Assembly (NCBI GenBank): GCA_030390025.1
Contig: CM059438.1
Span: 88,288,001 to 88,352,000, forward strand
Reading direction: 5' to 3'
Length of the DNA stretch: 64,000 nucleotides
Source: Squalus acanthias
Lineage: Eukaryota
Made by a program: the position numbers and the translations under genes. The notes below the pieces were generated by a model that was given only the letters and a program-made list of their open reading frames with translations, made no database searches and was not told where the DNA came from. Below, piece after piece: positions 8,045-40,982 of the stretch; position 1 is the first letter of the stretch, and each line of letters opens with the position of its first letter.

Positions 8045-10462
8045 CTAACTGCCACCCATCTTTTCTCTTATTTCTAAAGGAAGTGACTCAAAAACATATT
8101 GTTCTATCGTAAGTCCACTGAGTTTCAGCATAGTGCATTGTCCTATTTCCACTGGGAGTTTTTCCAAGTTGTTTCCTTGGAGTTCCAACTGAGATAGTTG
8201 GCTGAGCTTTGAGATCTTCCCGCTGAGGGATGAGATTAAGTTATTGCTTAGCTTCAGAGTCATGAGCTTGTTACATTTGAAAAGCTGATCTGGTAGACTT
8301 TCTATTTTATTGTAACCCAAATCCAAAAAATAGAGGTTTTTGAGGTTCCCGATATCAGTTGGAATTATAGAAATGTTGTTGTTGTGTGCATCGAAGTAAT
8401 GCAGTTTCTCAATGTTGAAAAGGACTTTTGGTAACATCTCGATCTGGTTGTTTGATAAGTAAAGATACTCCAGCTTTTTGATTAAATTAATAGTTGGAGG
8501 GATGGATTTGATCATGTTGAACCAGAACTTCAAACAGGATAACCTTTCCAGATATTGCAAGTTGGCAATTTCTTCAATTCTGGTCAGATTGTTACCTTTA
8601 AGGTCCAAGACTTGAAGTTTGGATAAGGTATAAATGGCATTTGGGATTTTATCCAACTCACAGTTGTGCAGTTCAATTTGGGTCAGATTTACCATTTTCT
8701 TTAAGATACTTAGGCTCAAGAGCTTAGTCTTATCATTGTGAATACAAAGCTTGAGCAGGTGGAATGCAACGTCGATGATGGTGGAGGGTATTTTGGAGAG
8801 ACTCGATTTTAGGTAAAGGACTTTCAGAGAGCGAAGTCCCTTCAAGGATTCCAGTTCCACAGCTTTTTTTTCAATAGCTAGCTTTCCAGTGAGGTACAGC
8901 TCTTTCAGCTGGATCAGTTTGTAGATCCATTCAGGGATTTCATCCCGACTCACATATTTAACTCCCACTTTTTTCAGTTGGTTTCTCAGCCACATCAAAG
9001 CTGATGGTGTAACTTCAGTTACACAATGTGAGAGCCAGATTTCTTCCAAATGGTCAAGTTGGGTTATTTTATTGGATATTTTAACATTACTACAAAGCTC
9101 GAGCCTTAAGACTTGTAGCTCAGTAACATCATAGACAGACTCAGGAATTCCTTGCAGCATGAAAAGGTACAACTCAAACTGGTCCTTCTTAGTTTTTGTT
9201 AGATGTTCCTTCACCTTCTCCATAGTCCAATCGTTATTCAAACTTAACAATTTTAGCTTTTTCTCACTCACCTCTGAGAGGAAGACTGCGAGACGTTTGC
9301 AATACAGAGTGTCATACTGATCGATCAAATGCAACAAGAAGGCAAAGTCATTTGTTACGTCAGGGATATCACTGAATTGGTTTTCTCCCCGTTTCTCAAA
9401 AGAGTATTGCTTCAGAGGTTTTCTGAAAACCCAAAATATTGTGTGGATACAAAGTAGCCAATAGATAACCACTAAACCCAGATACAGCAGGGCCATTTTC
9501 CCAATGAAACGAGCAGTGGTATAAGTACAATTGAAACTCTTGTAAAAAACCAATGATATCGCATTAGGTTCACATAAATTATAAAAGCTGACAACATAAA
9601 TATAGGCTGGAAAGTAACCAATAATAATTAAGCAATGTATAGTTTTGAACAATGTTTGCCCAGCATAAAATTTATAGATTGTATCTTCCTCTTCAACATG
9701 GAGTCTGAATTTCCTTACTTTCTCAAACAAAGCTTTGGCTTGCTCTGCGTCCTTCTTGTCCAGGGATGAGCCAGATCCTGGTGTGCTTGAGTAAATACGT
9801 GTAGGAACTTTAACGGTTGATGCGTCAGCTTTAATACTGATCCCATCGTCGTCACTTACAGTGGACCTGCGTGGTGCTAGGGCTTCTTCCAGTTCACTGG
9901 CATCTACACAGACTGCTGTAGATAGGGCTTTGGATGTCCATGGTGACTGAAAACAGTTATGAAGGATGTCAAGAAATTGTTGCATTTTGGAGCTTGTTTT
10001 AGGATATGTGAAACAGAAGTTACTGCAGATAATCAGAACAACTGTATGGAATAAAATTAGGTAAGAGAAGAACCTGGTAAACCAGGGAATTTGACTATAA
10101 CACATTTGATTGACATAATAGTACTGCCAATTGTATAACTTTGTAACCCTCCCTTGGCTGATACGAGGAAACGGATCTGGATTCATTTGTACTTGTGGAT
10201 TGGCACTGACATCAGATATTCTTGGAGTATTTTGCAGGGTTGAACTTATCTCATTATGTGCTGTTCCTTTGGTTTCACCAGCTTTATTGAGATATGGCAA
10301 ACAGAAAGTCTCATCCATGTAAAGCTGTATGCTGCAGCCAAAGATAGCTAACAACAACATAATAATACTCAGATAATCCATGAAAGTGTCCCACCAAGGT
10401 TTGAAGATCCGGAAGGCAGGTTGCTTGTCTTCCAAAGTTGAAACGTCACTGACCGAAAACAT
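8045..10462 (-). CDS. LRRC8 family VRAC subunit, divergent LRRC8D-like paralogue 2 (805 aa, single coding exon)
   Basis: Intact ORF with pannexin-like 4-TM domain (RIFKPWWDTFMDYL, NQMCY, LDKKDAEQAKALFEKVRKFR, FSDIPDVTNDFAFLLHLIDQYD) followed by the LRR array. Start MFSVSD aligns without gaps to LRRC8A M1 and sits 2 nt after acceptor tttccatttatttcag|GT ATG. Confidence 0.93.
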   Translation of the reverse strand: MFSVSDVSTLEDKQPAFRIFKPWWDTFMDYLSIIMLLLAIFGCSIQLYMDETFCLPYLNKAGETKGTAHNEISSTLQNTPRISDVSANPQVQMNPDPFPRISQGRVTKLYNWQYYYVNQMCYSQIPWFTRFFSYLILFHTVVLIICSNFCFTYPKTSSKMQQFLDILHNCFQSPWTSKALSTAVCVDASELEEALAPRRSTVSDDDGISIKADASTVKVPTRIYSSTPGSGSSLDKKDAEQAKALFEKVRKFRLHVEEEDTIYKFYAGQTLFKTIHCLIIIGYFPAYIYVVSFYNLCEPNAISLVFYKSFNCTYTTARFIGKMALLYLGLVVIYWLLCIHTIFWVFRKPLKQYSFEKRGENQFSDIPDVTNDFAFLLHLIDQYDTLYCKRLAVFLSEVSEKKLKLLSLNNDWTMEKVKEHLTKTKKDQFELYLFMLQGIPESVYDVTELQVLRLELCSNVKISNKITQLDHLEEIWLSHCVTEVTPSALMWLRNQLKKVGVKYVSRDEIPEWIYKLIQLKELYLTGKLAIEKKAVELESLKGLRSLKVLYLKSSLSKIPSTIIDVAFHLLKLCIHNDKTKLLSLSILKKMVNLTQIELHNCELDKIPNAIYTLSKLQVLDLKGNNLTRIEEIANLQYLERLSCLKFWFNMIKSIPPTINLIKKLEYLYLSNNQIEMLPKVLFNIEKLHYFDAHNNNISIIPTDIGNLKNLYFLDLGYNKIESLPDQLFKCNKLMTLKLSNNLISSLSGKISKLSQLSQLELQGNNLEKLPVEIGQCTMLKLSGLTIEQYVFESLPLEIREKMGGS

Positions 10463-10689
10463 ACCTGAAATAAATGGAAAAATTTGAAGTGATATTTGAA
10501 ACATACATTTTGTAGACAGTTGAGATGTTCATTCTTTACATTATACCTTTGGGTTTGGGTAATTCCAGGCACGTGCATGCCATATAGGGGTACCCACTTA
10601 ATGCTGCAGCGTAGAAGAGGGACTGAGGGCATAGTTGACAAAACACTGAAGCTAGGACAGTTCAATATAAAACTAGAAACATTATACAG

Positions 10690-11300
10690 TACTTACCTTA
10701 TATAAAACCTTAGCATGGCCTGATTTAGAATACTGTCCAGTTTTGACCTCCCCACCTCTCCCGCCACCCCCCAACCCCCCATATGTAGCAGGAGATAGCA
10801 AGGCCCTGGAGAAGGTCTGGATCACAGCAACAAGAATGAAAACTAGTCTTAGCTATCAGGATAGGGTCAAGGAACTAGAAGTTCACCTGATGCGGTAGCG
10901 CAAAACAGGCTGTATCGCATGGGCCTCCTGTTCAATTCTACTAACGTCAATGGGACTGAATTTCAAGCGTGGCGTATAACAGGTGGCCAATGCGATATGG
11001 CCCCTTCAGCGCTACCGCCCACGACGGATTTCAACCCCTAGGGTTTTGTTCATGGGAGAAGCGTAGACTTCGATGTGATATCGTTTTGGTTATTAAAATG
11101 ATAGATTCCGTTTGAGTGGATAGGTCATTTGACTTAGACAGGGATGGTAAAACTAGGAGCCATCAGTATAAGATACGAAACATGCAATCATGTTAGATGC
11201 CGTGAAGTATTAATTTTCACAGAGAGTTATTGACCTCTGGAATAGATTACCAAAGCATGTGGTAAGAACGGATTCACTGCAGTCCTTCAAAGGGGAGCTG
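10690..11300 (+). mobile_element. Degraded CR1 3' fragment interrupted by a small palindromic MITE-like insert (about 10878-11039)
   Basis: tataaaaccttagcatggcc...gaatactgtccagttttg, ggccctggagaagg and cacagagagttattgacctctggaat match the CR1 3' end seen at 56940-57370. The insert resembles 43215-43392 and 32610-32690. Confidence 0.6.
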
Positions 11301-13449
11301 TGGAAGTTGTGGACATCTCAGGTTATAGAGGCAGGGGCCACAGGCCAAGTGATACTGTTTGCCACAGGGCCCTCATAGTGCATTCTAACATACTCTAAAT
11401 AGAGTCCCAATAAATGTAGGATAGTTGACCTACCCTTAGCCGATGCGGTTCTTGAGCTGGTCACTAAAAAGTGTGCAGGACTCCGTCTAATTTCTATGTA
11501 GGGAGAAACTGGCCTTTGCTCAACACCTACCCACAGTAGCGTAGTTGAGATCCAAAACACAGCAGAGTTAATGGATCAGAACTGCATTACATCAGTTTTT
11601 GGCATTGTAACTTGATGCTGTTGTAACTTATATTTTTTAAAAGAGGTTTTCAAAGGAATTGTAAGGAAAGCGATAATTAAACTATCTTGAGGTCTGTTTA
11701 TAGTGTAGTAATATTAACTTTTAGTTTTTGCCTGTTAAGTGAGTTTCTGTTAGAAGGATGAAAATGTAATCATAAGACAGGTTTGCTTTATTTTGGAAAA
11801 ATGTAAGTTTTAGCAATGTTTCTGTCTCGGCATCTGTCTTCCTTACTTGTATCTGTGAATTGCCTTGGAACTTTTTTTTACCTTAAAAGCACCATGCAAG
11901 TGCAAGTTGTTTTTTGTTGTGCCCACTGTGGAACTGAGCTTTACATACTTGAAGGATCGAAATACGATCCCTGGCCTGTGCTGTGTTAACTGATCTCAGT
12001 CAGGGCAGTGGTAAGGATTGGCCTCAGAGCTCCCAAGCTTACGAAAGGTAAAAGGAGTTTCGGCTCCTAATGACTTTCCATGACTCTTGCCAGAAAGTGC
12101 ATGTGTGGATATTGGGGTGAGAATAGGACAGGGTCAACTGTGATATCATGGCTATCAAGGATGAGATGGATGTAAAAACATGTATGCAGTCAGGCTACAG
12201 TATATTATCACACAACAAACAATCCAAAGTATTTACTAGCTACCTGTAGAGATCCGACAAATCATGAATACAGAATGAGAATATTTTTCAAAGGCAGAGA
12301 CAAATTGGTAAAGAGAGAAATAATTAGGTAGGAAACAAATATTTTTACTTACTCAAGACAGAATTTTGGACTGCACTTAATCTGAATAGATAGCTTTTCC
12401 AATAAACATCAGAATTTGTCTTTTACAAATTATAAAGATAATAATTTAAGATCATTTAAGATAGCAAAATTAATAATACATGTTCAAACGGTTTCAGAAC
12501 TTTCAACTGAGATCCACCTGAGAAATATTGATAAAGTTCTAACAAATGGTTGGGTTTAGAATTTTTCTATTGATGATGTTGAATTTGGAATTTTTGATTG
12601 TCTTCAATACACCAATTCTTCTACATCCATTCAAACTCTTGACTTCACACAAATTGAAAGGAATGGCTTATCCCGGAGCTGGGCTGTCATCTATCCATTA
12701 AATATATGAATGTCTTGAGTTTAGCACACACCCGTCACACTCCGGATAGCCCACTTCAAAGTGTCACATTTTGTTACATATATAAAACAACCTTAAATGA
12801 GAGAGACAGCCATTTTGTGATGGGTTCTTCTGACCTGAAGCAAGAAATTTACAAGCAGTTACAATCACCCTCATGAGTTTACAAGCAGCTACAATCACGT
12901 GGATTTGCTTATTTGGACCACTTCTCCATGGGGAGTACTTGATCAATGGCCATCAGTGGTCCCAAAAGGACAAGCAAGCTGAACATGATAGCAGTGCTAT
13001 ACACCCAGACTACCTGGGAGCAATGCCATAGGGGATCTGCTATTAATTTAATAAAATACCACAGGCTATTAAAGTATTTATTTGAAATACAACTTTTTAT
13101 AACTGAAAAGCAGATATGAGAAAGTTGCAAACTTTCATTTATTAAATAATTTCCGGCATAAAGATTTGCTGATTGGGCTCCCCAATGGCTCAATGAATAA
13201 ATGTCCCATTAGGTGTACTACTGAGCCACAGAGACAAGGAAGGTTCTAAGTCTGATCCTGAGTCCTTGTTGCTTTAACCAAATCTTAGTCAGAGCAACAA
13301 TAGGGGGTAATACAATTGGGGATTGCTCCCTAAGGATGAGGAAGAAAAAAATTGTTTTAATTCTTGGATATGTATTTATTTTACTCTCCTGTGCCTCATC
13401 ACTCTCCTCAAAGATGCTTATGTCCTCATGGATGGATTTAGACAACTAC

Positions 13450-13630
13450 TGTACTGGGTCAAAATCCTGGAACTCCCTACCTAACAGCACTGTGGGAGTA
13501 CCTTCACCACACGGACTGCAGCGGTTCAAGAAGGCGGCTCACCACCACCTTCTCGAGGGCAATTAGGGATGGGCAATAAATGCTGGCCTTGCCAGCGATG
13601 CCCACATCCCATAAAAAATGAATAAAAAAA
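13450..13630 (+). mobile_element. CR1-like LINE 3' tail; further copies at about 30430-30660 (+), 55245-55520 (-), 58810-58905 (-)
   Basis: Shared sequence ctgggtcaaaatcctggaactccct...gggcaattagggatgggcaataaatgctggccttgccagcgatgcccacatccc. Confidence 0.75.
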
Positions 13631-13639
13631 GAGGTCCAA

Positions 13640-14760
13640 ATTCCCAGACAAGGCAGCTGAAGGACCCCTTGGGCCAGAGGTTGCATCTTCTGCAATTCCA
13701 CTTCCTCCTCACTTGTGCTTATGCTCACTAGATACTTTCATCTGCAACTCACTCCCCTGACATGGAGATATATATATATATCTGTGCTGGTGTTTGCCAC
13801 AGTAGGAGTGCAGGATGTTGGGTGCTGTGTGGCGCTAGGTTGAAGCTGTGCAGTTGGCTGGGCGGCTCTTCCTCTCGGGCACCTGGAAAAGCAGAAAAAG
13901 AACATACTTTACAATGCTTCCAGTAACACACTACTTGAAGCATAGCTACATGTGGCAAGAGATTGCAGTGTGTAACACTGAATTGCTGCAATGTGGGCCC
14001 ATGTTTGAAAGAATGAATGGCAGTATATAAGGAGCTATGCAATAAATAGTAACTGATACTTGCCATGAGCTGGCTGGAGGCCTCCAAATTCATCCCCTCC
14101 TCCCACCCCCCCCATCCCTACTGACTCCACACCCATAATCCTGATGACTTTCTCCTCATAAGGAGTCAAAGGTCGTAGCTTTGGTGAACCCTCTTCCTTC
14201 TGCAAGCACTGCTTTCTGTTACGTGTACTCTGCTCCTGCAAGCAGATATGAAAGGGACAGATGTAAGAAAGAGGATTGTGAAATGAATTGTAACAAAGTG
14301 CCCAGGACAACATCCACCTTATGTGAGTGTGTAAAGACACAGCTGCAAGGAACCCTATGTTGCCATAGTACTGCTTGATTGATCTGTTTAATGGCCAACA
14401 TGGTGATGACAGTGATATGTCAACAGGGACTAGTAAACCAGAAGACTCAGAATATGCCTATGCATTTACAGTAATCAGGAATTGGCAACATGCTCTGATT
14501 TTTCTCTCTCTTTTATGTTGCTCCAAGTTTATAATGAGGACCACATTGGCAAAAACAACCAATTAAGATGTTATCGCATGCATGCTCACTTACCTTGAGA
14601 AACCTTGCCTCCGCCAAATAAGTCTTCCTCACCCCCTCCTAGGGTTGGACGAGAGATCAGGCAACAATGACACTCTCTGTCACCTCCATTCATATTGCTC
14701 TGCCTGTACCGTATAATGCTGGGTAGTCATCTCCGCCTGGGCCTCATGTTACCAGGCAAG
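13640..14760 (-). mobile_element. Possible decayed PIF/Harbinger Myb/SANT-like accessory ORF
   Basis: QEQSTRNRKQCLQKEEGSPKLRPLTPYEEKVIRIMG resembles the 'TGGG.P....LTP.EE.V..IMG' segment of Harbinger Myb-like proteins (from recall); no intact ORF. Confidence 0.4.
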
Positions 14761-15142
14761 GTCAGCATTTTCATGTGCAGGTGGTATCATTGCTGTAAGG
14801 GGACCGTATTACTGGCCTCGTTGTCTGGGCTCACACATGAAGAATGGTCGTTTGAACGAGGAATTGCAGGGTGAGTGATGCCTGTGGATCCATACCCAGT
14901 GAGGAGCCATACCTTCAGCAGAGAAGGGATTGAAGAAAATTGGCAGAAAATGATGAAGATAAATGACTAAAGAACCTTAACACTTGCACATCAGGAAGCT
15001 GCCCCCATTTTTTTCTCCTACCCTCCTCTTCTAAAGACTTTAATTCTTTGCTGTTGTTCAGTTCTAAGGGTGTCCATCTATTGGAGCCTCACCCAAGTGG
15101 TCATTCCTCATATGTGAGCCTTGAGTAGTGAGTGTTGGGAGG

Positions 15143-15293
15143 CAATGTTCCTGCTAAGCTGCGCGGCCAGAGGTCCTGCACTGGCCGCTCACCAGCTTTT
15201 CAATGCAAGAAAATGTGCATGCGCGAAAATTTGACTGGGTCGCGCAGCCAGTTAAAGGGACCGCGCACCAAAAAGAAGTTACAGGGACCATTG
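15143..15293. mobile_element. hAT-type MITE with 8-bp TSD; related copies at about 42370-42507 and 60700-60833
   Basis: Termini CAATGTTCC...GGGACCATTG; perfect direct repeat TTGGGAGG at 15135-15142 and 15294-15301. Confidence 0.85.
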
Positions 15294-15949
15294 TTGGGAG
15301 GCTAATTGACGGCATCGCAATCAAGCCTGATCCTATTTCCATGTAACATCCAATACACTTGCATTTCCAGCATACCGGGGGGAGGAAGAGTGTGCAGGAC
15401 CTGGGGCTTAGGAGGAAAAAGAGGAGAAGCTTCACAGGAGCAATGACCATAGTAACATCAGTAAAATAGAGGGAGACAAGGAAAACTGTGATGGAGGGAG
15501 AAAATAATCAGGTGAGGAAACTTTTTCTTATATCTTTAAAAGACCAGGATCACACATAAAGAACGGCAATTGTGCAGACTACTGGAGCAATGCTGGTGCC
15601 GTTCACATGTACCTCAACACATGTCATCTGTTCGAAGAGAGAAAATTTGTTGAGCGGTACTGTTCAGTTTGGTAAAAGTTAAACAAAAAAAAAATCATGT
15701 GCTCCCACCATTGATGCAATTATGTCAATCTTTATATTTCTGATGCTTGATTGGCTGAAAAGGTGACCTCTGTTTTACCCAATCAGAGGCCATATTTTGC
15801 AAAACATAAAATACTGCAGATGCTGGAAATCTGAGACAAAAAACAAAAATGCTGGAAACACTCAGCAGGTCAGGCAACATATGTAAAGAAAGAAAATTGG
15901 TTAACTTTACAGGTTAAATTATTATTATTATTAATAAATTGTTATTCTT

Positions 15950-16272
15950 TCATAGAATCATAGAATGGTTACAGCACAAAAGGAGGCCATTCGGCCCGTC
16001 GAGCCCGTGCCGGCTCTCTGCAAGAGCACTTCAGCTAGTCCCACTCCCCCGCCCTTTCCCCGTAGCCCTGCAAATTTTTTTCCTTCAGGTACCTATCCAA
16101 TTCCCTTTTGAAAGCCACGATTGAATCTGCCTCCACCACCCTTTCAGGCAGTGCATTCCAGATCATAACCACTCGCTGCGTAAAAAAGTTTTTCCTCATG
16201 TCGCCTTTGGTTCTTCTGCCAATCACCTTAAATCTGTGTCCTCTGGTTCTTGACTTTTCCGCCAATGGGAAC
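15950..16272 (-). mobile_element. Young CR1 LINE 3' fragment
   Basis: SRTRGHRFKVIGRRTKGDMRKNFFTQRVVMIWNALP plus 3' UTR and ttctatgattctatga tail; highly similar to 57190-57513. Confidence 0.9.
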
Positions 16273-17318
16273 AGAAGTGTTCATGACGAAGGGTTATACC
16301 TGAACGATTAACCTTTGCCCTTCCTTTACAAATGCTGCCTGACTTGCTGATAAGTCTTCTCAGCATTTTGGGGTTTCGCCACATTTTGCAAAGCAGATTT
16401 CCACATCCAAAATGGACCGCCGGACTCCAGAGATAGAAGAAAAGAGGTAGGCAGTGTAAAACTCAAAAATATTTGGGGGGGAAATATAACATTAAAAAAT
16501 AGAATAGGGCTTAGAAATAGAATAAAGGAAAGTTAAAGAAAGATAAAATTGAGATGTTAGGAGTAAAGAGAAGTAAAGGAGTAAACTGAAGTAAAGTGTT
16601 TAATTTTTTTTTAATTACTCAATTTTTTAATTCTACTCCTGACATCTGATTAGCTTCATTACCATAATATTAGCGTTTGTTCCAACACTATAGTGTTTGA
16701 GCTGAATTTGTTTTGAAAGCCAGGCGGCGAGCATGAAATTCTCCTCATCTGCCCCAAGTTTATGAGTGCATTTATACTGCAGATACTCAAACCACAGAGC
16801 ACTAGTTGTCGCATTGTTCACGCTAGGGAGTACCTCATTTATAATAGCAAAAATGCTGCCTGGCCTGCGGAGTGTTTCCAGCGTTTTCTGTTGTTACCTC
16901 ATCTATAATGCCTGATTCTAATTGGAGTTCTCCTGCCAAGTGTGCTTAATGGTCTGCACAGAGCTCCCCTCCTGGCTTGTTAAGTTTTAAATGTTTTGAG
17001 AGCAGTGGCGTGAGTCCTTTAACACTTCTTAAACCTGGTGCAATGCTGCACTGGGGTTATACTCCATGCAGTGTCAAACCCAAGTGGTGTAAGAATGCCT
17101 CCTCCAGGGATCTCATGTTATCCGCCCCCCCCCCCCCCCCCTCCCCAGGAGTGAGGTTAGGACCTGAGTCCAGAGTTATACTGCAACTGTAACATCACTG
17201 CAATGACAATAAACATATTAGTGTTAATATCAAAAATCTGAAATGTGTGGTTAAAGTTGGCTGATTACATCGAGAATTATATCTCAAAACCAGACAAAAT
17301 TTTTTGTTCTTTTCTCAT

Positions 17319-17324
17319 TTTATT
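17319..17324 (-). terminator. Candidate polyadenylation signal (AATAAA) of LRRC8D-like gene 1
   Basis: First AATAAA I could find on the minus strand, about 410 nt after the stop at 17732. Confidence 0.35.
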
Positions 17325-17731: not shown

Positions 17732-20227
17732 TTATACAAGGTGGTCCAATTCAGGATGTGACATCTTGTTGGGAATTAGGAGTCTGATCTCGGGAGGAGC
17801 CTCGGGGTTGGCATTCATATTTATTCTGATTTGTATAGGAAGTGTCTCGAACAAGTACTCATCCAATACCAGACCACTCTGTTTCAGTTTGCTGCACTGT
17901 GCTATCTCAACTGGGAGTTCTTCCAACGGATTTCCTTTGAGTTCCAGTTTTGAAAGTAGGGCACACTGCTGGATTTTCCCACTAAGGGATGTTAGTAAGT
18001 TATTGTTTAGCTTCAGAGTCTTGAGCTTCTTACACTGGAACAGCTCGTCTGGTAGAACTTCTAACTTATTGGAACTCAAATCTAGGTACTTCAGGTTTCT
18101 GAGGTATCTGACAGCCGTGGGAATCGCAGTCAGACGATTATTGCTCACGTCCAAATGATGTAGCTTCTGGATGTTAAACATACTATTTGGCAAGGTTTCA
18201 ATCTGATTGTTGGATGCATTAAAACGTTCAAGGTTGCCAATGTAACTAAAGGTATCTGGAACGGATTTGATTTTGTTGAAACTAAGATTGAAGGAGGACA
18301 ATCTGCGCAGGCGTTGCAAGCTTTCGATTTCCTCAATTGTGGAAAACTCGTTGCCCTGAAGGTTCAACACTTGCAGGTTGGAGAGGCCGAAGATGCCCTG
18401 CGGAATCTTCTCCAGGTCACAGTTTTGCAGATTAAGACGGGCGAGGTTGACCATGCTGCCCAGATTGTGGAGCATCTCCAGCTTGTTCTTGTTGTTGAAG
18501 ATCGACAGCTCGGTCAAGTGGGGCGCCACGTACAGCACGTTGAACGGGATCTTCACCAGGTTGCTGTTGATCTGGAGGACCTTCAAGTAGCGAAGCTCTT
18601 TTAAGAACTCCATCTCCAACGTTGTACTCTCGGTGTTGACGTTCCCAATCAAGCAAAGCTCTCGCAGTCTGGTCAGCTTACTGACCCACTCGGGCACCTC
18701 CTCGTGATCCGAAAAGGTGACTGACAGTGAGCGCAACTGGTTGCCTAAGAAGAATAACGCGGCTGGTTTGACGGTGACGATGCAGCTGACGATGGAGAGT
18801 TCTTCCAGGTGGACCAGCTGGGTGACCTTGGTGTTTATGTTAATATCGTTGCAAAGCTCCATCTTCAAGACCTGCACCTCTGTCACATCGTAGACGGCCT
18901 CGGGGATGCCTGTCAACATGAAGAGGTGGAGTTCCAACTGCTCCTTATTGTTTCGGATCAGCTGCTGCCTGACCTTGTCCGCCGTCCAGTCGCTGTTCAA
19001 GCTCAGCAGCTTCAGTTTTTTCTCGCTGGCCTCGGACAGGAAGATGGAGAACCGCTTGCAGTACAAGGGGTCGTACTGGTCGATCAGGTGCAGCAGGAAG
19101 GCGAAGTCGTTCTTGACGTTGGGGATGTCGCTGAACTGGGTTTCCCGTTTCTCGAAGGAGTACTGCTTCAGGGGCGTCCTCAGGACCCAGCTGAGGGTGC
19201 GGAAGCAGAGCAGGAGGTAGATGGCCACCAGAGACAGGTAGAGCAGGAGCAGCCGCCTGAGCAAGAAGGCCACACTGAAAGTGCAAATGAAAAGCCCGTA
19301 GCCCGTCACCGATTCTGTGCCGGGTCGACATATAATGTCAAAACCCACCGCTTCCACGAACACGGTGAAATAGCACAAAATCGCGAGGCACTGCAGGGTT
19401 TTAAGGACCAGCTGCCCAACATAGAGTTTGTAGATGGTGTCCTCTTTTTCCACGTGCAGCCTGAATTTCCTCACTTTCTCAAACAAGGCTTTGGCTCGCT
19501 CGCCATCCTTCTTGTCCAGCAGCTCGTACTGCCTCTGCATTACCGGGTTGTCGCGAGTGAAGCCTTTGCTCGGGTCGCTGATGCTATGGGCCACCGTCTT
19601 GAAGGAGGCCGGAATGCTTTTGCGCTTTTCTTGCGCCCTGATGTTCATGTTGCTGCTGGTCTCCGTGACCGCCAGAGAGAGGACATCGGTTGTCCAGGGC
19701 GACTCGAAACACTTCTCTAAGATAAAGATCAAGTGTTCTATCTTGGAGCTGGTCTTGGGATACTTGAACCAGAAGTTGCTGCAGACCATTAAGGCGACGG
19801 TGTGCAGCAGAATGAAATAGGAGAAATATTTGGGAAACCAGGGCACTGCATGGAAATAGCACGCCTGGTTGACATAGCGGTACTGCTGAAGGTCTAAGTT
19901 CGTTTTCCCTCCATAGATGGCATACACCGCATTGACGTGACTGAGTCCAGCGAATTCTGGGTGACCTGATCTACCACGAAGTTGAGTTACATTATGAACC
20001 GCGCTGGTTGAGTTGACTTCAGTGTGTGATCGGTTGCTGGAAGCAGAATCGGCCAGAATTGGCAAACAGACAGTCTTGTCCTTGTATATCTGTGTGGTGC
20101 CTCCAAACACAGCGACCATCAGCATGGTGATCGCTAAATAGTCCATGAAGGCGTCCCACCAGGGCTTAAAGATCCGGAAGGATGGTGGGGATTTACTGAC
20201 TGAAGAAATTTCTTCGAAGGTAAACAT
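17732..20227 (-). CDS. LRRC8 family VRAC subunit, divergent LRRC8D-like paralogue 1 (831 aa, single coding exon)
   Basis: Intact ORF: MFTFEE..RIFKPWWDAFMDYLA, KTNLDLQQY, SNFWFKYPKTSSK, LDKKDGERAKALFEKVRKFR, VKNDFAFLLHLIDQYDPLY, full LRR domain. ATG lies 2 nt after acceptor ctcttcttctgtatttag|GA ATG and aligns without gaps to LRRC8A M1. Confidence 0.94.
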   Translation of the reverse strand: MFTFEEISSVSKSPPSFRIFKPWWDAFMDYLAITMLMVAVFGGTTQIYKDKTVCLPILADSASSNRSHTEVNSTSAVHNVTQLRGRSGHPEFAGLSHVNAVYAIYGGKTNLDLQQYRYVNQACYFHAVPWFPKYFSYFILLHTVALMVCSNFWFKYPKTSSKIEHLIFILEKCFESPWTTDVLSLAVTETSSNMNIRAQEKRKSIPASFKTVAHSISDPSKGFTRDNPVMQRQYELLDKKDGERAKALFEKVRKFRLHVEKEDTIYKLYVGQLVLKTLQCLAILCYFTVFVEAVGFDIICRPGTESVTGYGLFICTFSVAFLLRRLLLLYLSLVAIYLLLCFRTLSWVLRTPLKQYSFEKRETQFSDIPNVKNDFAFLLHLIDQYDPLYCKRFSIFLSEASEKKLKLLSLNSDWTADKVRQQLIRNNKEQLELHLFMLTGIPEAVYDVTEVQVLKMELCNDININTKVTQLVHLEELSIVSCIVTVKPAALFFLGNQLRSLSVTFSDHEEVPEWVSKLTRLRELCLIGNVNTESTTLEMEFLKELRYLKVLQINSNLVKIPFNVLYVAPHLTELSIFNNKNKLEMLHNLGSMVNLARLNLQNCDLEKIPQGIFGLSNLQVLNLQGNEFSTIEEIESLQRLRRLSSFNLSFNKIKSVPDTFSYIGNLERFNASNNQIETLPNSMFNIQKLHHLDVSNNRLTAIPTAVRYLRNLKYLDLSSNKLEVLPDELFQCKKLKTLKLNNNLLTSLSGKIQQCALLSKLELKGNPLEELPVEIAQCSKLKQSGLVLDEYLFETLPIQIRINMNANPEAPPEIRLLIPNKMSHPELDHLV

Positions 20228-29500: not shown

Positions 29501-29515
29501 ACACACACGTACACA

Positions 29516-29552
<37 letters not shown>
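29501..29552. repeat. (CA)n microsatellite
   Basis: Interrupted then pure AC dinucleotide run. Confidence 0.95.
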
Positions 29553-29555
<3 letters not shown>

Positions 29556-32269: not shown

Positions 32270-32850
32270 TCTGGCGTAGTTAGTAGCACTCTGGCGTCTG
32301 AGTCAGCGATTATGGGTTCAGGTCCACGATGGACTTGAGCACATCATCTAGTGGACACTGTTCAGGTTGACAAAAAAGATCTCATGGCAGGATGGGAAAA
32401 GCCAGGCGTTCTCCTTCATTTGGCCAACATTTCTCCCTCCCAGCCAATAAAACATTAGAAGTCAGAGCAGCAACAATTTGCAGTAATATGCATCAAACAC
32501 TGAGGTAAATGGTGAGTTTACATACACTAGAGGGAGAATCATGAGATTTCAGAGAAAAACCACATTTTCATCTAATTTTATACAATTATCTAATATAAAG
32601 TAAATAGAAGGGGAAACTAAGGTGGGGTGTATAATGAACGGCCGATCCGCTATCACCTGTTTCACGCCCCCGAAGTTGAAAGTTCCGCCCATTGTCTGGA
32701 CATGCATTCATTTACCGTTTGTATATCCTTGCTGGGCACAAATTGGCTTCTGCACTTGCCGCACTTTACTTGAAAAGTAATTCCAGTGGTCGTAAAGCTC
32801 CTTCGGCCATCTTAATGAGATAGTAAGGCACTATATAAATGCAAGCTCTT
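32270..32850 (+). mobile_element. Highly degraded DeuSINE interrupted by inserted local sequence
   Basis: Head tagtagcactctggcgtctgagtcag..gggttcaggtcc, core aaaagatctcatggca, tail ggcactatataaatgcaagc. Confidence 0.6.
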
Positions 32851-34689
32851 TTTTAAAGAGGGAACGGCCTGTAAACTTGACCAATGGTGTCTAGAATCTT
32901 AGCCTATCAATTAAACGTATGTCAATAATTCCCGCCCCCCAAGATAGTTTTGGCTGTGAAGTGGGATGGAGAGGGAGGAGGGGAGTCATCTTAATCACGT
33001 CACCTGATACGCGAGTATATGTGGCAGTAACACCAGAAAGTAAGACATTAGAAGTCAGAGCAGCAATAATGTGCAGTAATATGTATCAAACACTAAGGTA
33101 ATGGTGAGTTTATATACGCTAGAGTGGGAATCATAAGATCGCAGAGATTTCAGCGAAAATCACATTTACATCTAATGAGTTATGTATAATTTTATACAAT
33201 TATATAATTTGACACTTAGATTTACATATAGTTTATAATACATTTGTAATATTTATATCTATTCTGATATTGCATATTTTGTACATTCTTGATGCTTATT
33301 CATTCTATTTCAATGGTGATGGACAGGTGACTAACACAAATTTATTTGTAAGAGGGTAGGTGAGGGACGCAGATTTATCTTTTCAATTATTCTTCATTTT
33401 AAATTTACGATCACACAGAAGATCCATTCATTTACTTCAAAAAAAGGAGTATAAACGCAACGCACAATTTCTTAAGATTTTGGCCTGGGAGCCTATTAGC
33501 CTTCACAAAGTTATTTCAGTGTTACTGCAGTAACCCTTTTGACTGATCATCTTGTTTTTAAAATCAGATTCAGTATATAAAAAGGTCACTAGCTGCTTGC
33601 TTTTGCGCATGTGCTTCTATGTGGAGGAATGTCACAATAAGATTTTTTTCCCCCTGTATATCTGTACAATGCCCATTCCAACCGCAGGAGGTGATTAGTT
33701 GATTGTGACCTTTAAATGCTGAACAACGTTAGGCGCTCAACCGTGATGGGAAAATCAGATTGTCATTAGGGAAACCGAAGTCGCTTGTCATGAGAGAGAC
33801 AGACAGACACAGACAAGACAAGACAAGAAAACAGAAAGATAGAAAGAAAGATGAAAGCCAGTATTGAAGCACAGGCAAATAATCAATCACTTCAGTTTCC
33901 AAAGCAGCATCGTGGTCCAAATAAATCACACACAATAATTACAATACTGCAGAAGATGAATAATCTTGCAATTTATTCCTAGCAATTCAACTTATGTAGG
34001 TAAAAATGCCAGATTTTACTATTCTGACGAGGTAAATTAAAAAAAGATGGGTTTATTATTGAGATATCTCACGACATCCCAACTGAGATGTTGACCATTG
34101 GAAAACACTGCAGCTTTAAAATAGGGCTGTTAAGACATGAAATTAACAACATTTCTGGTTACATTTTAAAGAGAAATAAAGTTAAAAGCAGGTTTCCAAA
34201 ACGGAGACTGTGAATAAAGCCTATTTCACAGCATTAGATAATACTTTCTATTGCTTTGATTAAATGTGTAAGCAAAACCAGCATAATTACCGTCACTTAC
34301 ACATTTAATAGGTCAAACAGTCAAAATAACAAACCTGAGAAAGGTGTTGCTACTAGCTTGAGGCATATTCACCCCTGAAGTGAAATCTTAGCATCAATTA
34401 CAATTGAAAAATAACAAAATCTTATACATCCAACTTATGCACGAAGCAAGCCAGTCCTGTTAAAGGCGTACTGCAATAACTATTTCATTCTTAGTGAGTA
34501 AACGGGGATCATTGTAACATTTCCAGTAATTTGGGCATCCAACAGAAATAGAAGCTTAGCACATACATTTGCTTAGGAACACATTAGAACAGAGGCAACA
34601 ATGACCTTGAAGAATATCCTTCCCCGCCCTCCTCCCTGACGGGGAATGTTAGTGTTGGGGGCCAGAACAGTTGACATTTTTGGTACCCA

Positions 34690-35000
34690 GTGTCAGTATC
34701 AAGCTCTCCCAGGTCAGGCATAGCTTGATGCACGGTAAAGCTCCTTCTACTCTGCCCCCAACAATGCACCTCAGTAGAACACCACTACTGCAACAGCGTG
34801 GCAGTTTTTTTTAACCCATGCTTATCGGTGTTAGAGATTGCCAATTAGTACTTAATTAAAAGTAGCTTTGTGCTGTAGGGCCCATGCCCACTAGGAACTG
34901 TCCAAAGTGCTAGCAGACAGAAGACACTTTGGTCCCATCAGTCTGGGCTGGATTTGAACCCAGATACCATAGGTGACAGGCCTGTGTCTAACCCAAGGCC
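34690..35000 (-). mobile_element. LF-SINE-like element, downstream of the LRRC8A stop
   Basis: Reverse complement of the blocks at 26730-27000 (ttgccaattagtac, gcccactaggaactg, ctgggctggatttgaacc). Confidence 0.68.
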
Positions 35001-37176
35001 ACCCATCTCTCCAAATACAATTTCTCCCCCAAATTATGGTACACAGAACACTTAAAATCCCGTGTATCATCAATGGTTGAAGTACCAACCAGCACAGTAC
35101 TGACATAGACAATGAATTGGAAAGAAGAAGAAAGATAAATTGTGAATGTTTGCAATAGAAACAGAAAATACTAGAAAAGCACAAAAGGCCAATCAGCATT
35201 TAAAAGACAAAGTTAGGTTTATGTGGGTCCCACCCAAACTGCTAACCCATCTTTCTCTCAGGCACTGACTGGCCTGTTGCATATTACCCGAAGAAAAAAA
35301 AATGGTTCTTTGTTCCCTACGTGCCTTTAATGTCTCTCCTTGCTTCTCAATACCTCTTCCGCCCTCTTCTCACTATCATTTTCATCTTTTTTGAATTGCT
35401 CATTTGTTCTCTCGTTTCATTGTTCTGTTTCTGGTGGGATGAGGGCAGAGAGTAGGGAGGTGCAAGCGAATAGACAGATACAGAGCAGGAAAACCAACAA
35501 ACCACTGGTGGAATCAGATATCTGATCTAAACAAAAATATAGCAGCAAGACCAGGACACACAACACACAGAAGCTGGTTTAGAAGAGAACTGGTAAAGAG
35601 ACAACATAACTTTAGCCTAGGATTAAATGGTGGAACTGGTCAGAAGCCAAATAGCAGGAGCAATTCCCATGAACAAACAGCCACAGTGCAGCATGCAGGT
35701 TCATTATCAACAGTACGGAGTTAGAAAGGTTAACCGCTGGAGTGTACAGAACATATCAAAAAGGTACAGTACGCTACGATGAGGGGAACATTTTACACAG
35801 AAAAACATTTAAAAATTAATCTTTAAGTGAATTTTTCCATTTCAATTTCCCACCCTCCCCAAGTGCTAGGGTACAATGCCCTGGATACCACCTCCAAATG
35901 CCCATTCTTCATACGTGAACCTACACAATGACAACAGGCTATATGACAATAGAGACATCTCAACCAAGCCCAGTTCCGTCTTTAACCGAGGTTCACACAG
36001 ATGCATTTCCAGGTGGGGTCAGTGGACAGTAAACAGGAGCAGGAACCCTCAGTCCCCCACCCACCTCCCCCCAGCTGATTTTTCACCTTCCTTACCTAGG
36101 GTGCAGAGATCCGCTAACTCCACACAAACCAAGTATTGAACCTGGGACCTTGTGGTTCTGCCCATGCTGCATTTACCCACTAAGTTAAATGGCTGTTAAT
36201 TTATGGTAAAAGTTAGAATTCGATTTGCCTCTTCTGTCAAATATGGAGTAGAAGAACATTTCTCACGTGTATACTTTATCTTCACTGCTACAATCAGAAT
36301 TATTTTTGAGGAACAGTTACATATATCATGGAAAATAGGTTTTGTTTCTGAGAAACTTTAAAAAAAAATAAAAGATGTGCCCCAAACAACGTAATTAAAT
36401 TGAAACTTAAAGACTAAAGGCTAGTTTTTTTTTTTTTTAAACACTTTTATAAAAAAATCCATCCAGCCAGTCCCCAAAACTCAATACTCACTCCTCTCGG
36501 AATACTGCTTACATCTGCAAGATAGGCCTCCACGGAAATTCCCCATCCTCTCCTTAACTGTTTTGACAACATGACACAGGAGTATTATGTAGTGTTTTGC
36601 TCCATTTGAAAGGGAATGGTGGAAAGGATGTGAAATCATGAGTTCAGCTCAATCATCATGCTAAACAAAAAAAATCAGCTTGATGAGAAACTAGAATTTT
36701 TTTTTGGCCTAAGACGATCAAAAGGGACATCATTTTTTAAAAAATATCACCGGTTGTTTCATGCAAGGATTGTATTGCCTGCTCAGGGCAGATACAGTAC
36801 CGGTCCCTAATACAGTACCAGCTAAATAAATAACAAGGCATTGGCAATATCAGTCTGTTGAAATGTCATGGCTACGAACGTGTTAGCTTTTTTGTGATTC
36901 ATTAAAGCAGAAGTACTAATTGTGTTAAGATATTTAAACCAGCTATTTCTTTAAGTGATTCTTTTAAGTTACTGGCAGGCTTTCCATTCTGTCTATCACT
37001 CTGTTCCCCATGGAGAGCACCAGTCCCAGGAACAGAAAATCAGACACATTTCCGTTATACAAACAACAGAACAGGAGATCTGCTCAATCATTCCAGTACA
37101 GCAGGCTGCAAAAATCTGCTGAAAACTTGGCAAGATTTTTTGTTTTTTCCTTTTCCCTTACAATATAAATAAAAAT

Positions 37177-37452
37177 TCAGGCTTGTTCCTTGTCTGCTCG
37201 CCACAGCTGCTCCTTGACCTCAGACGGGAGTGTAGTGAAGAGATCGTCCTCTACCACGAGGCCGCTCCGTTTGAGTAGCCGGCATTCTCCGAGCTCCACA
37301 GGGAGACACTCTAGTCTGTTTCCACGAAGCTCCAGCTGTGTCAAGCTCGTCAGCTCGCCGACCCGTGACGGCAGTGATAGCAGGCAGTTATTCCCCAGGT
37401 TTAGGGTCCGGAGCTTACGACACTGGAAGAGTTCAGGTGGCAGTGTTTCAAT
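37177..37452 (-). CDS. LRRC8A: LRRC8A (SWELL1) last coding exon (91 aa + stop)
   Basis: IETLPPELFQCRKLR...KRSGLVVEDDLFTTLPSEVKEQLWRADKEQA*, with the diagnostic LRRC8A C-terminus; acceptor catcttgcag at 37454-37453, phase 0. Confidence 0.97.
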   Translation of the reverse strand: METLPPELFQCRKLRTLNLGNNCLLSLPSRVGELTSLTQLELRGNRLECLPVELGECRLLKRSGLVVEDDLFTTLPSEVKEQLWRADKEQA

Positions 37453-38810
37453 CTGCAAGATGCGAGGGGGGGGGGGGGGGGGGGGGGGGGCAAGAAAGAG
37501 AACAAAAATGTCAAATATTTTAACTGATGCACTTGTTGGACTGAAGTAGCATGTTAGAAAAAGAGCTTATTTATTCAGAGAATACCAAAGATTTTTTTTT
37601 ATAAACGCTCCAAGTATTTTCTCATATTATATTAGGAATTTGGAGGAAGTAATTTTCACACTGGCTATAGAACAGAAGACACACAATTAAATGTCAAAAG
37701 GATTAAAAACCATTTCTTCATTAAGGGTCTCCCAGTAAATCACTTGCACATTTTAGTCTATGTTTGGCTCCATGAACTGTAGGCATGCACAGAATATGTA
37801 CAAACTGAATACAGTAGAAAGTAGTATTTTTTATTAAGTCCATTTGGACAGCACACATCCTCTGCTTCACTGCGAGCTCGTCAATGGTGGGATTTGCACC
37901 GAGTAACTCGGGAGATTTATTTACAAAAATGCAAAACTGAGAGAAATATTTTTTGAAAGTAGTTACTTCTAATCCTCATTTTACTTTAGGAAAGATTAGT
38001 AGGTAGTCTGGCCTTATTTTATCTTTCTGCTGGCGAGAGTGGAGCAGGACTAGCATGTAGCTGCTTCCTAATAATAACTCTTTCGTGGGAAGGTTTAATT
38101 TGACATTGAAATGTTAATTAAATTGGTTTGAGAAACAAAAAACGACTTTACACTCAGCATGGGCAAAAACATGTCACAGCCGCATGTTAAAAAGGCGTCT
38201 AAGCTTTGTAAAAGTAAAGGCAAAGCCCAAATGGCGTAATTATTGGTATAACTGCTACCTGTAGTAATCTAGCAGCCGCTGCTTCAAGGATTGAGTAGCT
38301 GTAGTGCAGAACAGCTAATGGATGCCTCAGAGGAGACACCTATAAAGCCTCAACGTTCTGCTCTCACAGCAAACTTGGACTAATTAAGTTCAGACTTGCG
38401 GGGGGGGGGGGGGGGGAAAGGTAATTGGGTAAAAGAAAACGGGAAAACTGGAAAGGTTCAAAAGTTAACCAAAAGCAAAATACTGCAGACTATAAAACGT
38501 ACTTGTGTCAGATGCCAGAACTCGAGCTTAGGGCTCCAGTGATCAAATCCCAGTCATTGCACAACAGGTTGCACTCAAGCTTCCCTTACAGTTTGCCAGT
38601 CTCAACCTAGTGGAGGGTGGGACTACTTAGCATACATCTTCATGGGATAAGCAAACAGCAATATTAATGAAGTCCACAAAGATGTTTAGACTGTCCTACC
38701 CTGCTGTTTAAAAGATTGCATTGACGATGGGCAGAAGGGGGCAAAATAGATGTAAATGTAGTTGAATAGTGCACATATATTAATTATTAGAGTTGAACGC
38801 ACACACTCAC

Positions 38811-40982
38811 CCTGTTCGCAGTGACAGCGAAATACTGCAGATTCTGAAGGAATCCAATGTCCTGTGGTATGGAGGTTAGGTTATTATGACTCAAATCTAA
38901 GTACCGCAATTTGCGGCAATAGAAGAGCTGAGCGGGTATCTTTTCAATTTTGTTCCGGTTCAGGTAGAGCCTTTCCATATTGGTCAAAGTGCCAATCTGA
39001 ATGGGGATATAGGCAATGTGGTTATACCACAGCTTAAGGCAGACTAGGCGCCGTAGGTGCTGGAAGCTGATTATTTCCTCGATTGTCTTCAAGTTGTTGT
39101 CTTTGAGATCGATCTCCTGCAAGTTATGGAGACTGAAGATTGAGTGTGGGATTCGCTCCATGTCACAACGGATCAACTCCAATTCTGTCAGATTAACCAT
39201 CTTCTTTAGACTATTGAGGACCATAAGCTTGGTGCCCTCATTGTTGATGGACAATTTCTGCAGATGGACTCCAACATCCGTGACAACCTGTGGCAACTTT
39301 GTCAGGTTGCTCTTCAACCTCAAAACTTTGAGGCATTTGAGTTCCCGCAAGCCGTCAATCACAATGTAGCGATTGTTCTCCGCACTCAGATTCCCAGTTA
39401 GGTGAAGCTCTTCAAGGTTCTTCAGGCTGTAGATCCATAGAGGGATCTCTTTGATGTCTGTAAACTTAATATGTAGTGACTTCAGGTGCTCCCGTAAGAA
39501 GGCAAGAGCTGGTGCCTCAATCTTTGCTGGTGTGTGGTACAACCAGAGTTCTTTGAGGTTGGTAAGTTGGGCAATGATCGGAGGAATGGTGACATCCAGG
39601 ATCATCTCCAGTTTGAGCACTTCCAGCTCAGTCAGGTCAAAGATGGTGTCTGGGATTCCACTCAGCATGAAGAGGTGGAGCTCCAGTTTGTCCTGAGAGT
39701 TTTTCATGATCCTCTGCCGGAGTTTCTCCAGGGTCCATTCATTATTCAGATTGAGCTGCCGTAATTTGTTCTCGCTGACCTCAGACAGAAAGACGGCAAA
39801 ACGTTTCGAGTACAACGGATCGTACTGATCAATCAGGTGCAACATGAAAGCAAAATCATTCTTGACATCAGGGATGTCGCTGTAGCTGCTCTCCTCCCGA
39901 ATGGACTCGAACGAATACTTTTTCAGAGAACGCCGTAGCATCCACCAGAGTGTGTACATGCAAATGAGTCCATAGACAATCACTAAACTAATGTAAAAGG
40001 ATGCAAGGATCTTGAACAGTGTAGCTAATGGATGAGCGCACTGGTACACACGGTACCCTGTGAGGTTCTGAATGTCCACTATACAGGACACATCAAATTT
40101 TATATCATCAACATAATAAAGTGAGTAACTAATAATAAGAGCAAATTTGATTACTTTGATAATAGTCTGTCTCATGTAGAGTTGGTAAACTATATCCCCT
40201 TCCTCTACATGGGTACGGAATTTCTTTACTTTTTCAAACAGGGCTTTAGCTTGTTCGCCCTCCTTCTTATCCAGTACGCCCGTTTCTGAGCGATCAACTA
40301 TTCCCTGCTCGATGCGAGATTTTGTTCTTTGCAGCATGGGTACGCTGGCCTCCACATCCTCACTCACCGAGGAGGATTTCTTTGCCATTGAGCCATTCAT
40401 TTTAACAAATGACTGTTTCGGGTCACTCTCCTCCACCACAGTTTCAGATAGCGCCCGCGTTGTCCACGGCGAGTCAAAACATTTCAGAAGGATGGATACA
40501 AAGTGTTCCAGCTTTGAGCTGGTCCGAGGATATTTGAACCAGAAATTGCTACACACTAAGAACACCAGTGTGTGCAGAAGTACAAGGTATGGAAAGTATT
40601 TTGCAAACCAGTGAAGTTTATTCTCGTAGCATACCGCATCCACATAGTTGTACTGGTGCCGGTCCAAGTCATACTGGATACCCGTCGGTTCATTGGAAAA
40701 TGGGGGAAGGACTGAAGATGGTGGGAGGGATGCATTTGGGTATTCAGCGGTTGGCGACTCGGTGGGTAGTGGCTGAACAGGTTCAACGCACGTATTGTTC
40801 ATAACCCACTTGCAGGGTAAACAAATCATCTTGTCTTGTGTGACCTGCAGTGTGCCACCAAACACTGCTATCATAAGCATTACGATGGAGATGTAGTCCG
40901 TAAACACGTCCCACCATGGTTTCAAGATGCGGTAGGCAGGCTGGGTGTCAGCAAAATATCGTAGTTCTGTTACCGGAATCAT
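38811..40982 (-). CDS. LRRC8A: LRRC8A (SWELL1), obligatory VRAC subunit, main coding exon (724 codons; 815 aa in total)
   Basis: MIPVTELRYFADTQPAYRILKPWWDVFTDY..YDLDRHQYNYVDAVCY.., near-identical to human LRRC8A. Acceptor tctctcttaatttccag|GTGCGTG ATG (exon starts 40989); donor AGG|GTGAGT after ANR, the same intron position as in human. Confidence 0.98.

Follow-up and report, generated by a model that had tools for sequence, protein, structure and literature searches.

A tandem pair of intact LRRC8D-class genes beside LRRC8A in the spiny dogfish, candidates for accessory VRAC subunits

Introduction

What are the two LRRC8 genes that separate LRRC8A from PHYHD1 in the spiny dogfish Squalus acanthias (contig CM059438.1, positions 88,288,001 to 88,352,000), given that available passages of the reviews of this family treat LRRC8A-E as its entirety (PMC6363415, PMC6451053, PMC12182595)? 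A sequence-only reading of the locus had suggested that they may be subunits of the swelling-activated channel VRAC outside the A-E set. They are new members of the known LRRC8 family, termed here X1 and X2 (collectively X), and we lean towards regarding them as an intact LRRC8D-class tandem pair that bony vertebrates have probably lost; the encoded proteins would be VRAC accessory subunits acting with LRRC8A and are predicted to alter gating or selectivity.

Results

Organization of the locus

The minus strand of the analyzed stretch (64,000 nucleotides, hereafter the window) carries, 5' to 3', LRRC8A, X1, X2, and PHYHD1, with the three LRRC8 genes co-oriented. LRRC8A is made up of a large coding exon (38811..40982, minus strand; 724 codons ending in a phase-0 GT donor; 1454 bits against PDB 6g8z_A) and a last coding exon (37177..37452, minus strand; AG acceptor, 91 aa and a stop), which when joined (40982-38811 + 37452-37177) encode 815 aa. 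Hence, the three co-oriented open reading frames of 815, 831, and 805 aa reported earlier stand with respect to orientation and size, but the first of them is two exons and not one frame; the accompanying description of LRRC8A as nearly invariant is a little strong for a protein with about 88% identity to the LRRC8A chain 6g8z_A (641/726 alignment columns, counted manually). X1 (17732..20227, minus strand, 831 aa) and X2 (8045..10462, minus strand, 805 aa) are each a single exon with one open frame, free of stops and frameshifts, and are placed in the LRRC8D class by the tree; both contain the whole Pannexin_like model (PF12534; E 2e-115 in X1 and 1e-102 in X2) followed by LRRs. They share 51% identity with each other, 43-44% with LRRC8A, and 45-49% with LRRC8D overall (46-47% with this genome's own D), in line with the divergence noted earlier; the 51% identity and their separate orthologs rule out mis-assembled or allelic copies. 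A splice-acceptor-like AG lies 2 nt upstream of the ATG in X1, just as in the LRRC8D of this genome, and likewise in X2, which also has a polyA-like AATAAA 141 nt downstream of its stop. The position of the pair between LRRC8A and PHYHD1 is borne out by a PHYHD1 coding exon within an open frame at 93..329 on the minus strand (exon ends approximate), whose sole match is the PHYHD1 structure PDB 2opw (E 2.2e-14); a second PhyH exon lies 14 kb past the window. The three-gene arrangement is not a chance product. No relics of C/E- or G-class LRRC8 genes were found on C14, the chromosome with this cluster, in the window and 170 kb of neighboring DNA, where one weak LRR match (E 0.014) was recovered.

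The LRRC8 complement of the genome

This genome encodes ten LRRC8 genes, which fall into four classes, {A,B}, {C,E}, {G1,G2}, and {X,(D,Y)}; five of them lie outside A-E, X1 and X2 being two of these five, and the lineages Y and G persist in some bony vertebrates. Exon structure tracks these classes: D, Y, X1, and X2 have one coding exon, A and B each have a late donor, at one and the same position, and C, E, G1, and G2 have a donor after the first helix. On C14 the order A-X1-X2 is the counterpart of B-C-D-G1 on C15, where the true D lies at 12.14 Mb after B and C, X being on C14, outside the B-C-D tandem cluster. The available part of an earlier survey describes C and E as closest to each other and E as not found in shark (PMC4316641); unlike that report, an E-clade gene is present in this genome. 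PKN-type genes occur on C14 and C22 and SPOUT1 on C14, while a search with PF00155 for KYAT1/KYAT3 as synteny markers recovered none near the clusters; with PF00100, the members of a large family crowded the matches.

Phylogenetic position of X

In a 37-row tree (8/23 X rows and some of the D rows, omitting fused or partial proteins such as P0014, P0016, P0105, and others), X1+X2 form a clade (100/100) whose sister group combines D with a D-like lineage that has no name, here Y (D+Y 100/98; X+D+Y 100/100), while shark and bony-vertebrate D group together (100/100) to the exclusion of X. On the membrane region alone, monophyly of the D class (X, D, Y) is retained (100/99), with D+Y at 83/85. 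In AU tests of groupings picked after the first trees were seen, X was rejected as joining shark/chimaera D (p 0.0002), all D (p 0.0037), or chondrichthyan Y (p 1.6e-7), and with Amia/Perca D-like proteins only at p 0.048. The diagnostic sites of the latter are ambiguous (X-type at 2-4 of 14-19, Y-type at 1-2 of 4-5), and with gar added they fall in Y at 100/98. An origin of X as a copy of the neighboring LRRC8A was likewise discarded (AU p 3e-53). By both tree position and exon structure, X1 and X2 are outside the A/B, C/E, and G classes. The X branches are long (about 3x D from the common node), so that attraction of X to the base of the D class through long branches is a possibility, and the trees are without any jawless D-class sequence. 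The best reading is that X is an LRRC8D-class whole-genome-duplication paralog on a 9q34-type chromosome; the tree pattern of the D class, (9,(1,19)), fits the pairing of 6/9 versus 1/19 chromosomes described for MHC paralogs in the accessible part of that study (PMC10751288).

Distribution of the orthologs

Sharks, rays, and chimaera have orthologs of X1 and X2, every one of which carries the automatic name 'LRRC8D-like'. Among the matches listed, X1 has nine elasmobranch orthologs at 71-85% identity and one in chimaera at 60%, and X2 has ten at 80-88% and one in chimaera at 64%; X1 and X2 lie on equal-sized contigs in six other species, and the chimaera pair has consecutive accessions (XP_007900957/8). 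Every listed ortholog is an open frame, the databases holding called proteins, among which broken copies would not show. One skate-like X2 protein (P0009) has an N-terminal extension that resembles intron sequence, and its contig is therefore no evidence of a transcript; 10 of the 20 supplements of the spiny dogfish transcriptome paper (PMC5568229) yielded no match. No X ortholog was recovered from bony vertebrates in protein databases (covering, for each protein, the best 120 among some 8000 candidates, and 150 of the 50% representatives), an absence that pertains to those databases and not to the genomic interval, and X was likely lost in bony vertebrates. Together with the trees and AU tests, which answer the earlier question of a named orthogroup by placing X outside the clade of shark and bony-vertebrate D, this agrees with the proposal of extra subunit genes outside all A-E orthogroups, conserved in cartilaginous fishes and not found in bony-vertebrate protein databases; they do not, however, constitute a wholly new class, belonging as they do to the LRRC8D class (100/100).

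Sequence features of X1 and X2

Of 191 pan-LRRC8 sites, X1 keeps 156 and X2 154, including L402 in both, and the extracellular cysteines C54, C113, C295, and C310 (LRRC8A numbering) are kept in 11/11 X1 and 12/12 X2 rows. Conversely, 17 of these sites in X1 and 23 in X2 are lost in every ortholog, which could point to a different partner or job. Several changes lie at or beside sites with assigned pore roles, namely R103, K98/D100, and V40/T44/T48, as set out in the available parts of PMC12182595 and bioRxiv 10.1101/2024.11.24.625074. T48 is replaced by Tyr, fixed in X1 and X2. The R103 filter position is uncharged, as is also described for C, D, and E in the same review (PMC12182595, in part): it is I/Y/F/L/H in X1, with five residues across 11 rows, and N/V/I/Y in X2. 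The flanking positions, acidic D102 and Gln/His/Glu at H104 in 28/28 non-X rows, are aromatic in 12/12 X2 rows (Y/H/F at 102, W in all 12 at 104); the dogfish X2 has Tyr-Asn-Trp at 102-104 in a remodeled extracellular pore helix, with Glu at K51. We found no role for D102, H104, or Y106 in the available passages of the reviews (PMC12182595, PMC6363415, PMC6451053). X1 is distinguished by Arg at N107, a conserved C-terminal tail of about 30 aa, and a first loop with 2-4 sequons for N-glycosylation. The first intracellular loop of X is just 13-15% identical to D and the second 71-73%; the A-type loop, tied to trafficking in the accessible text of PMC12182595, is missing from both proteins (identity there at most 15%). 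Shark-chimaera identity by region is 30-83% for X1 and 34-75% for X2, versus 86-100% for D, and conservation in X1 and X2 peaks in the structured parts. A structure model of X2, with low confidence in its membrane half (mean pLDDT 60.5), shows LRRs as well as four long helices and three extracellular strands. Since both proteins retain the channel scaffold, yet carry substitutions fixed at pore positions or next to them, X1 and X2 are probably VRAC accessory subunits that would change gating or selectivity.

Discussion

Comparison with known LRRC8 proteins

The top solved-structure match of both X proteins is LRRC8D (SWELL4; 829 and 844 bits versus 763 and 734 for LRRC8A), with which they share the tree class, the single coding exon, and an uncharged filter-position residue. 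They differ from it in lying outside the clade of shark and bony-vertebrate D, in sitting on the LRRC8A chromosome, in a shorter extracellular loop and Tyr48, and further in Y/H/F102, W104, and an acidic residue at 51 in X2, and R107, the sequons, and the conserved tail in X1. With the neighboring LRRC8A (SWELL1, the essential VRAC subunit) they have the domain plan, strand, and adjacency in common, but not the exon structure or R103, at 43-44% identity. The teleost lrrc8da/lrrc8db, suggested in part of one study to matter for organic osmoregulation (PMC6994961), are likewise additional genes of D type in aquatic animals, but nest within true D and derive from the teleost duplication. Lineage Y ('LRRC8D-like'; sharks, lungfish, caecilian, gar, bowfin, and perch) is also D-class, single-exon, and auto-named LRRC8D or LRRC8D-like, but is sister to D, lies on the LRRC8E chromosome, and has been kept in bony vertebrates. 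Abascal and Zardoya reportedly named a ray-finned-fish paralog LRRC8F in 2012; a search with that term found no literature match, and LRRC8F, if real, is a better candidate for Y than for X. Among the matches listed, nothing on shark LRRC8 paralogs or elasmobranch LRRC8 transcripts was on topic; LRRC8 itself was mentioned only once among those for LRRC8 in cartilaginous fish.

Origin and possible function

We envisage that the two vertebrate genome duplications acted on an ancestral cluster, [A/B]-[C/E]-[D-class]-[G-class]: of the resulting copies, the 1p22-type chromosome would have kept B-C-D-G1, that of the 19p13 type E, Y, and G2, and that of the 9q34 type A and the D-class gene X, the last probably doubling in tandem before the chimaera-elasmobranch split. 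It is quite improbable that X is instead a younger, fast-evolving copy of D or Y, confined to cartilaginous fishes and moved beside LRRC8A, its deep placement being a long-branch artefact: such an origin would suit the long branches and the drop in D+Y support (83/85) when only the membrane region is used, and would explain the missing bony-vertebrate ortholog without loss, but it conflicts with the AU tests (p 0.0002 for shark/chimaera D, 1.6e-7 for chondrichthyan Y) and needs a landing directly behind A, precisely where the paralogous cluster has a D-class gene. Further, the acceptor-like AG is found 2 nt upstream of the start codon in X1 as in D, which is what copying at the DNA level would give. 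Decay of redundant duplicates under relaxed selection is very improbable: X does evolve faster than D (shark-chimaera 30-83% and 34-75% versus 86-100%), but all listed orthologs from sharks, rays, and chimaera, called proteins as they are, retain open frames, conservation is highest in the structured parts, and substitutions such as W104 (12/12) are fixed lineage-wide.

We consider it fairly unlikely that X1 and X2 form a large-pore channel of their own, or are modulators or intracellular subunits, rather than ordinary accessory subunits. The aromatic residues of X2 at 102 and 104 (12/12 rows, unlike the 28 non-X rows), the 17-23 pan-conserved sites lost in all orthologs, the 13-15% identity of the first intracellular loop to D, and retention of X1 and X2 as a pair in at least six other species would all accord with such a role. 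Against this, available passages of the reviews have all studied non-A subunits requiring LRRC8A for normal VRAC activity (PMC6451053, PMC6363415), the second intracellular loop of X still matches D at 71-73%, 154-156 of the 191 sites are retained, and neither X has the A-type trafficking loop described in part of PMC12182595. For accessory subunits joining LRRC8A, mammalian A:D channels offer a template: LRRC8A would supply trafficking and swelling sensing, while X subunits would swap some of its Arg103 filter residues for uncharged ones and set a bulky Tyr at lipid-gate position 48, and X2 would rebuild the residues flanking the filter on either side. The predicted outcome is a VRAC that is less selective for anions, has a shifted threshold, and suits organic solutes. 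Only tentatively do we extend this to a cartilaginous-fish VRAC of LRRC8A and X1/X2, absent from bony vertebrates, whose aromatic-lined uncharged filter and Tyr lipid gate might pass cations and zwitterions (choline, betaine, or TMAO). Coelacanth, which also retains urea and TMAO, gave D and B proteins only among the matches listed, and this weighs a little against a strict tie of X to urea osmoregulation.

Such a channel, if real, would explain the permeability of skate liver VRAC, for which values relative to chloride of about 0.2 for cations and 0.55 for choline, versus 0.02-0.04 elsewhere, are quoted from Jackson et al. 1996 in the accessible part of PMC6363415, and the mammalian A-E set would be what reduction has left of an ancestral cluster with four classes. 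Given ten genes in four classes in this shark, mammals have lost at least three lineages (X, Y, and G), and 'LRRC8D-like' in fish annotations spans at least three separate lineages. X1 and X2 are natural pore variants, older than the chimaera-shark split, at selectivity and lipid-gating positions; constructs of them bear on two questions, namely what determines how permeable VRAC is to organic solutes and to cations, and which channel lies behind the unusual swelling-activated conductance of skate hepatocytes.

Gene organization of the LRRC8A-PHYHD1 interval

The minus strand of the window carries, in order, LRRC8A, two further genes of the LRRC8D class, here termed X1 and X2, and, beyond X2, a PHYHD1 exon (329-93). 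The three co-oriented LRRC8 genes of 815, 831, and 805 aa proposed by the sequence-only reading are borne out: X1 (20227-17732, minus strand, 831 aa) and X2 (10462-8045, minus strand, 805 aa) are each a single unbroken frame coding for a full pannexin-like region and LRRs, and LRRC8A (815 aa in total) is split into two minus-strand exons, 40982-38811 and 37452-37177, whose splice ends are the canonical GT and AG. Exon 1 of LRRC8A is ~88% identical to the solved chain 6g8z_A, as counted from the alignment. In X1 and X2, as in LRRC8D of Squalus acanthias, an acceptor-like AG lies 2 bases before the ATG, and an AATAAA follows the stop by 407 and 141 bases, respectively.

The two genes, 7 kb apart, differ in GC content at third codon positions (0.69 in X1 vs 0.44 in X2), and the X1 coding region is rich in CpG. 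X1 ends in a tail of ~30 residues (17732-17830, minus strand), kept from rays to chimaera with the last residue mostly Val and missing from X2; it is possibly a binding or sorting signal. On the PHYHD1 side, a 21-base minisatellite (848-2194) generates long spurious open frames. The window also holds LINE-like reverse-transcriptase and endonuclease fragments at 3586-6079 and 56232-57386.

Phyletic distribution and phylogenetic position

Among the best 120 of ~8000 matches, X2 has orthologs in 10 elasmobranch proteins (80-88% identity) and the chimaera (64%), and X1 in nine elasmobranch proteins (71-85%) and the chimaera (60%); the remaining matches comprise the other gene of the X pair, true LRRC8D (45-49%), and two predictions of fused proteins. 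X1 and X2 lie on equal-sized contigs, a match of size rather than of coordinates, in Heptranchias, Carcharodon, Mustelus, Rhinoraja, Hemiscyllium, and Callorhinchus; in the chimaera, the two proteins have consecutive accession numbers. None of the 28 other LRRC8-like proteins compared has X1 or X2 as its best match. A profile built from 22 X proteins and searched against 1.84 billion 50%-identity representatives yielded, in the best 150, one X-type cluster (1438 bits) followed by LRRC8D at 1042; a further ortholog might lie within that cluster or be unannotated. For the coelacanth, which retains urea, X was not found among the proteins recovered by database searches. X1 and X2 are real genes, intact and conserved, that add new members to a known family, and the lineage is mislabelled in databases, all named orthologs being called 'LRRC8D-like' or hypothetical.

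A 37-row tree recovers four classes, {A,B}, {C,E}, {G1,G2}, and {X,(D,Y)}, which exon structure matches; Y denotes a D-like lineage and G a fourth class. The X1 and X2 clades each contain the chimaera, indicating that the tandem copy predates the chimaera-elasmobranch split. Shark D groups with coelacanth, tetrapods, bichir, and gar (100/100), and shark Y with lungfish, caecilian, bowfin, and perch (98/99; 100/98 on the membrane region with gar added). Among alternative placements, AU tests rejected X with A (p=3e-53), with chondrichthyan Y (p=1.6e-7), with shark and chimaera D (p=0.0002), and with all D (p=0.0037); a grouping with the bowfin and perch rows was only borderline (p=0.048). Counting against the deep placement of X are its branches, ~3x as long as those of D, and the drop in D+Y support to 83/85 on the membrane region; D-class sampling in these trees is confined to jawed vertebrates. 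Overall, we consider the evolutionary reading of X well supported and quite probable.

The LRRC8 complement of Squalus acanthias

A genome search recovered ten LRRC8 genes: A, X1, and X2 on C14, the chromosome of the window; B, C, D, and G1, in that order, on C15; and Y, the first exon of an E-type gene, and G2 on C22, the body of the E-type gene being on the unplaced contig C508. This gene (C22:23.449 Mb, locus L016, and C508, locus L008) groups with frog E (94/88), and the same tandem repeat occurs on both sequences; PMC4316641 had reported no LRRC8E in shark. Y (C22:24.18 Mb; L003:1501-4011) has one exon, is the sister of LRRC8D (64% identity), and has orthologs, often labelled plain 'LRRC8D', in sharks, rays, chimaera, lungfish, caecilian, gar, bowfin, and perch. 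In a frog, a D-like and an E protein come from one contig and their accession numbers nearly follow each other, and the snake prediction P0016 resembles an E-Y fusion.

Class G lies outside the mammalian A-E set and is perhaps the more surprising lineage. G1 (C15:12.169-12.177 Mb, loci L015 and L010), behind D, and G2 (C22:9.553-9.563 Mb, loci L017 and L009) have two coding exons and are 41-53% identical to A-E; their clade also holds newt (P0149), frog (P0154), and lamprey (P0172, a long row) proteins, named 'LRRC8C-like', 'LRRC8A-like', or not at all. The filter position of G1 is Arg. The frame of G2 is open except for a single in-frame TAA (L009:2341-2343, C22 at about 9.561 Mb), which would mark a recent pseudogene, an allelic variant, or a misassembly. 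The literature searched, mainly open-access papers, yielded no description of X, Y, or G.

Chromosomal origin

Human LRRC8A lies on chromosome 9, B-C-D on 1, and E on 19 (PMC12182595), three of the four MHC-paralogous regions, among which 6 is paired with 9 and 1 with 19 (PMC10751288). In Squalus acanthias the sister pairs C/E, D/Y, and G1/G2 connect C15 to C22, with A and X on C14 outside, as this pairing predicts. An earlier proposal by Abascal and Zardoya derives A and E from B and C by duplication (as cited in PMC6994961). X is probably the D-class gene of the 9-type chromosome copy, and its loss in bony vertebrates would have left A directly beside PHYHD1. SPOUT1 and a PKN-type gene mark C14 and another PKN-type gene C22; their human counterparts lie at 9q34 and 19p13. 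One SPOUT1 exon matches with equal score at C14:96174978 and 96211099, 36 kb apart, either a local duplication or an assembly artefact. Elsewhere, zona-pellucida-domain exons form large tandem arrays on C1109, C1879, C1945, C2997, C3223, C3278, and C9:56.7-56.9 Mb (150 of 319 candidates scored).

Pore residues and predicted function

X1 and X2 evolve faster than D. Of the 191 positions conserved across 28 further LRRC8 rows, X1 retains 156 and X2 154, and both have L402 and all four of the shared extracellular cysteines, which points to channel subunits under constraint. Position 48 (LRRC8A numbering, as for all sites below) is Tyr in all 11 X1 and all 11 X2 sequences and in one of 28 other rows; Asp here renders A:C and A:D channels constitutively active via disturbed pore lipids (PMC12182595; bioRxiv 10.1101/2024.11.24.625074). 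X residues at the filter position, 103, carry no charge and vary. In X2, position 102 is Tyr/His/Phe (Asp/Glu in 39/39 other rows), 104 is Trp (12/12), 51 is Glu/Asp (11/12), and the inactivation site 100 is Lys (10/12), with no Lys at 98; in X1, 107 is Arg (10/11). Roles for 102, 104, 107, and 51 are suggested by their position. A simple count gives the outer mouth of X2 a net charge near that of D, and a large shift in selectivity is therefore not assured.

A:D channels are hexamers in a 4:2 ratio whose filter is wider and more hydrophobic; they let through more taurine and more of other solutes that are large or non-anionic (bioRxiv 10.1101/2024.11.24.625074). In skate hepatocytes, VRAC permeability relative to chloride is ~0.2 for Cs+ and Na+ and 0.55 for choline, against 0.02-0.04 in most cells (PMC6363415). 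Skates possess X1, X2, and Y orthologs, and this permeability could be due to X, or equally to Y or G. A special osmolyte pore formed by X is speculative and rather unlikely. By analogy to A:D channels, X1 and X2 would co-assemble with LRRC8A, shifting gating and selectivity, and a role as accessory VRAC subunits is a plausible and fairly probable prediction.
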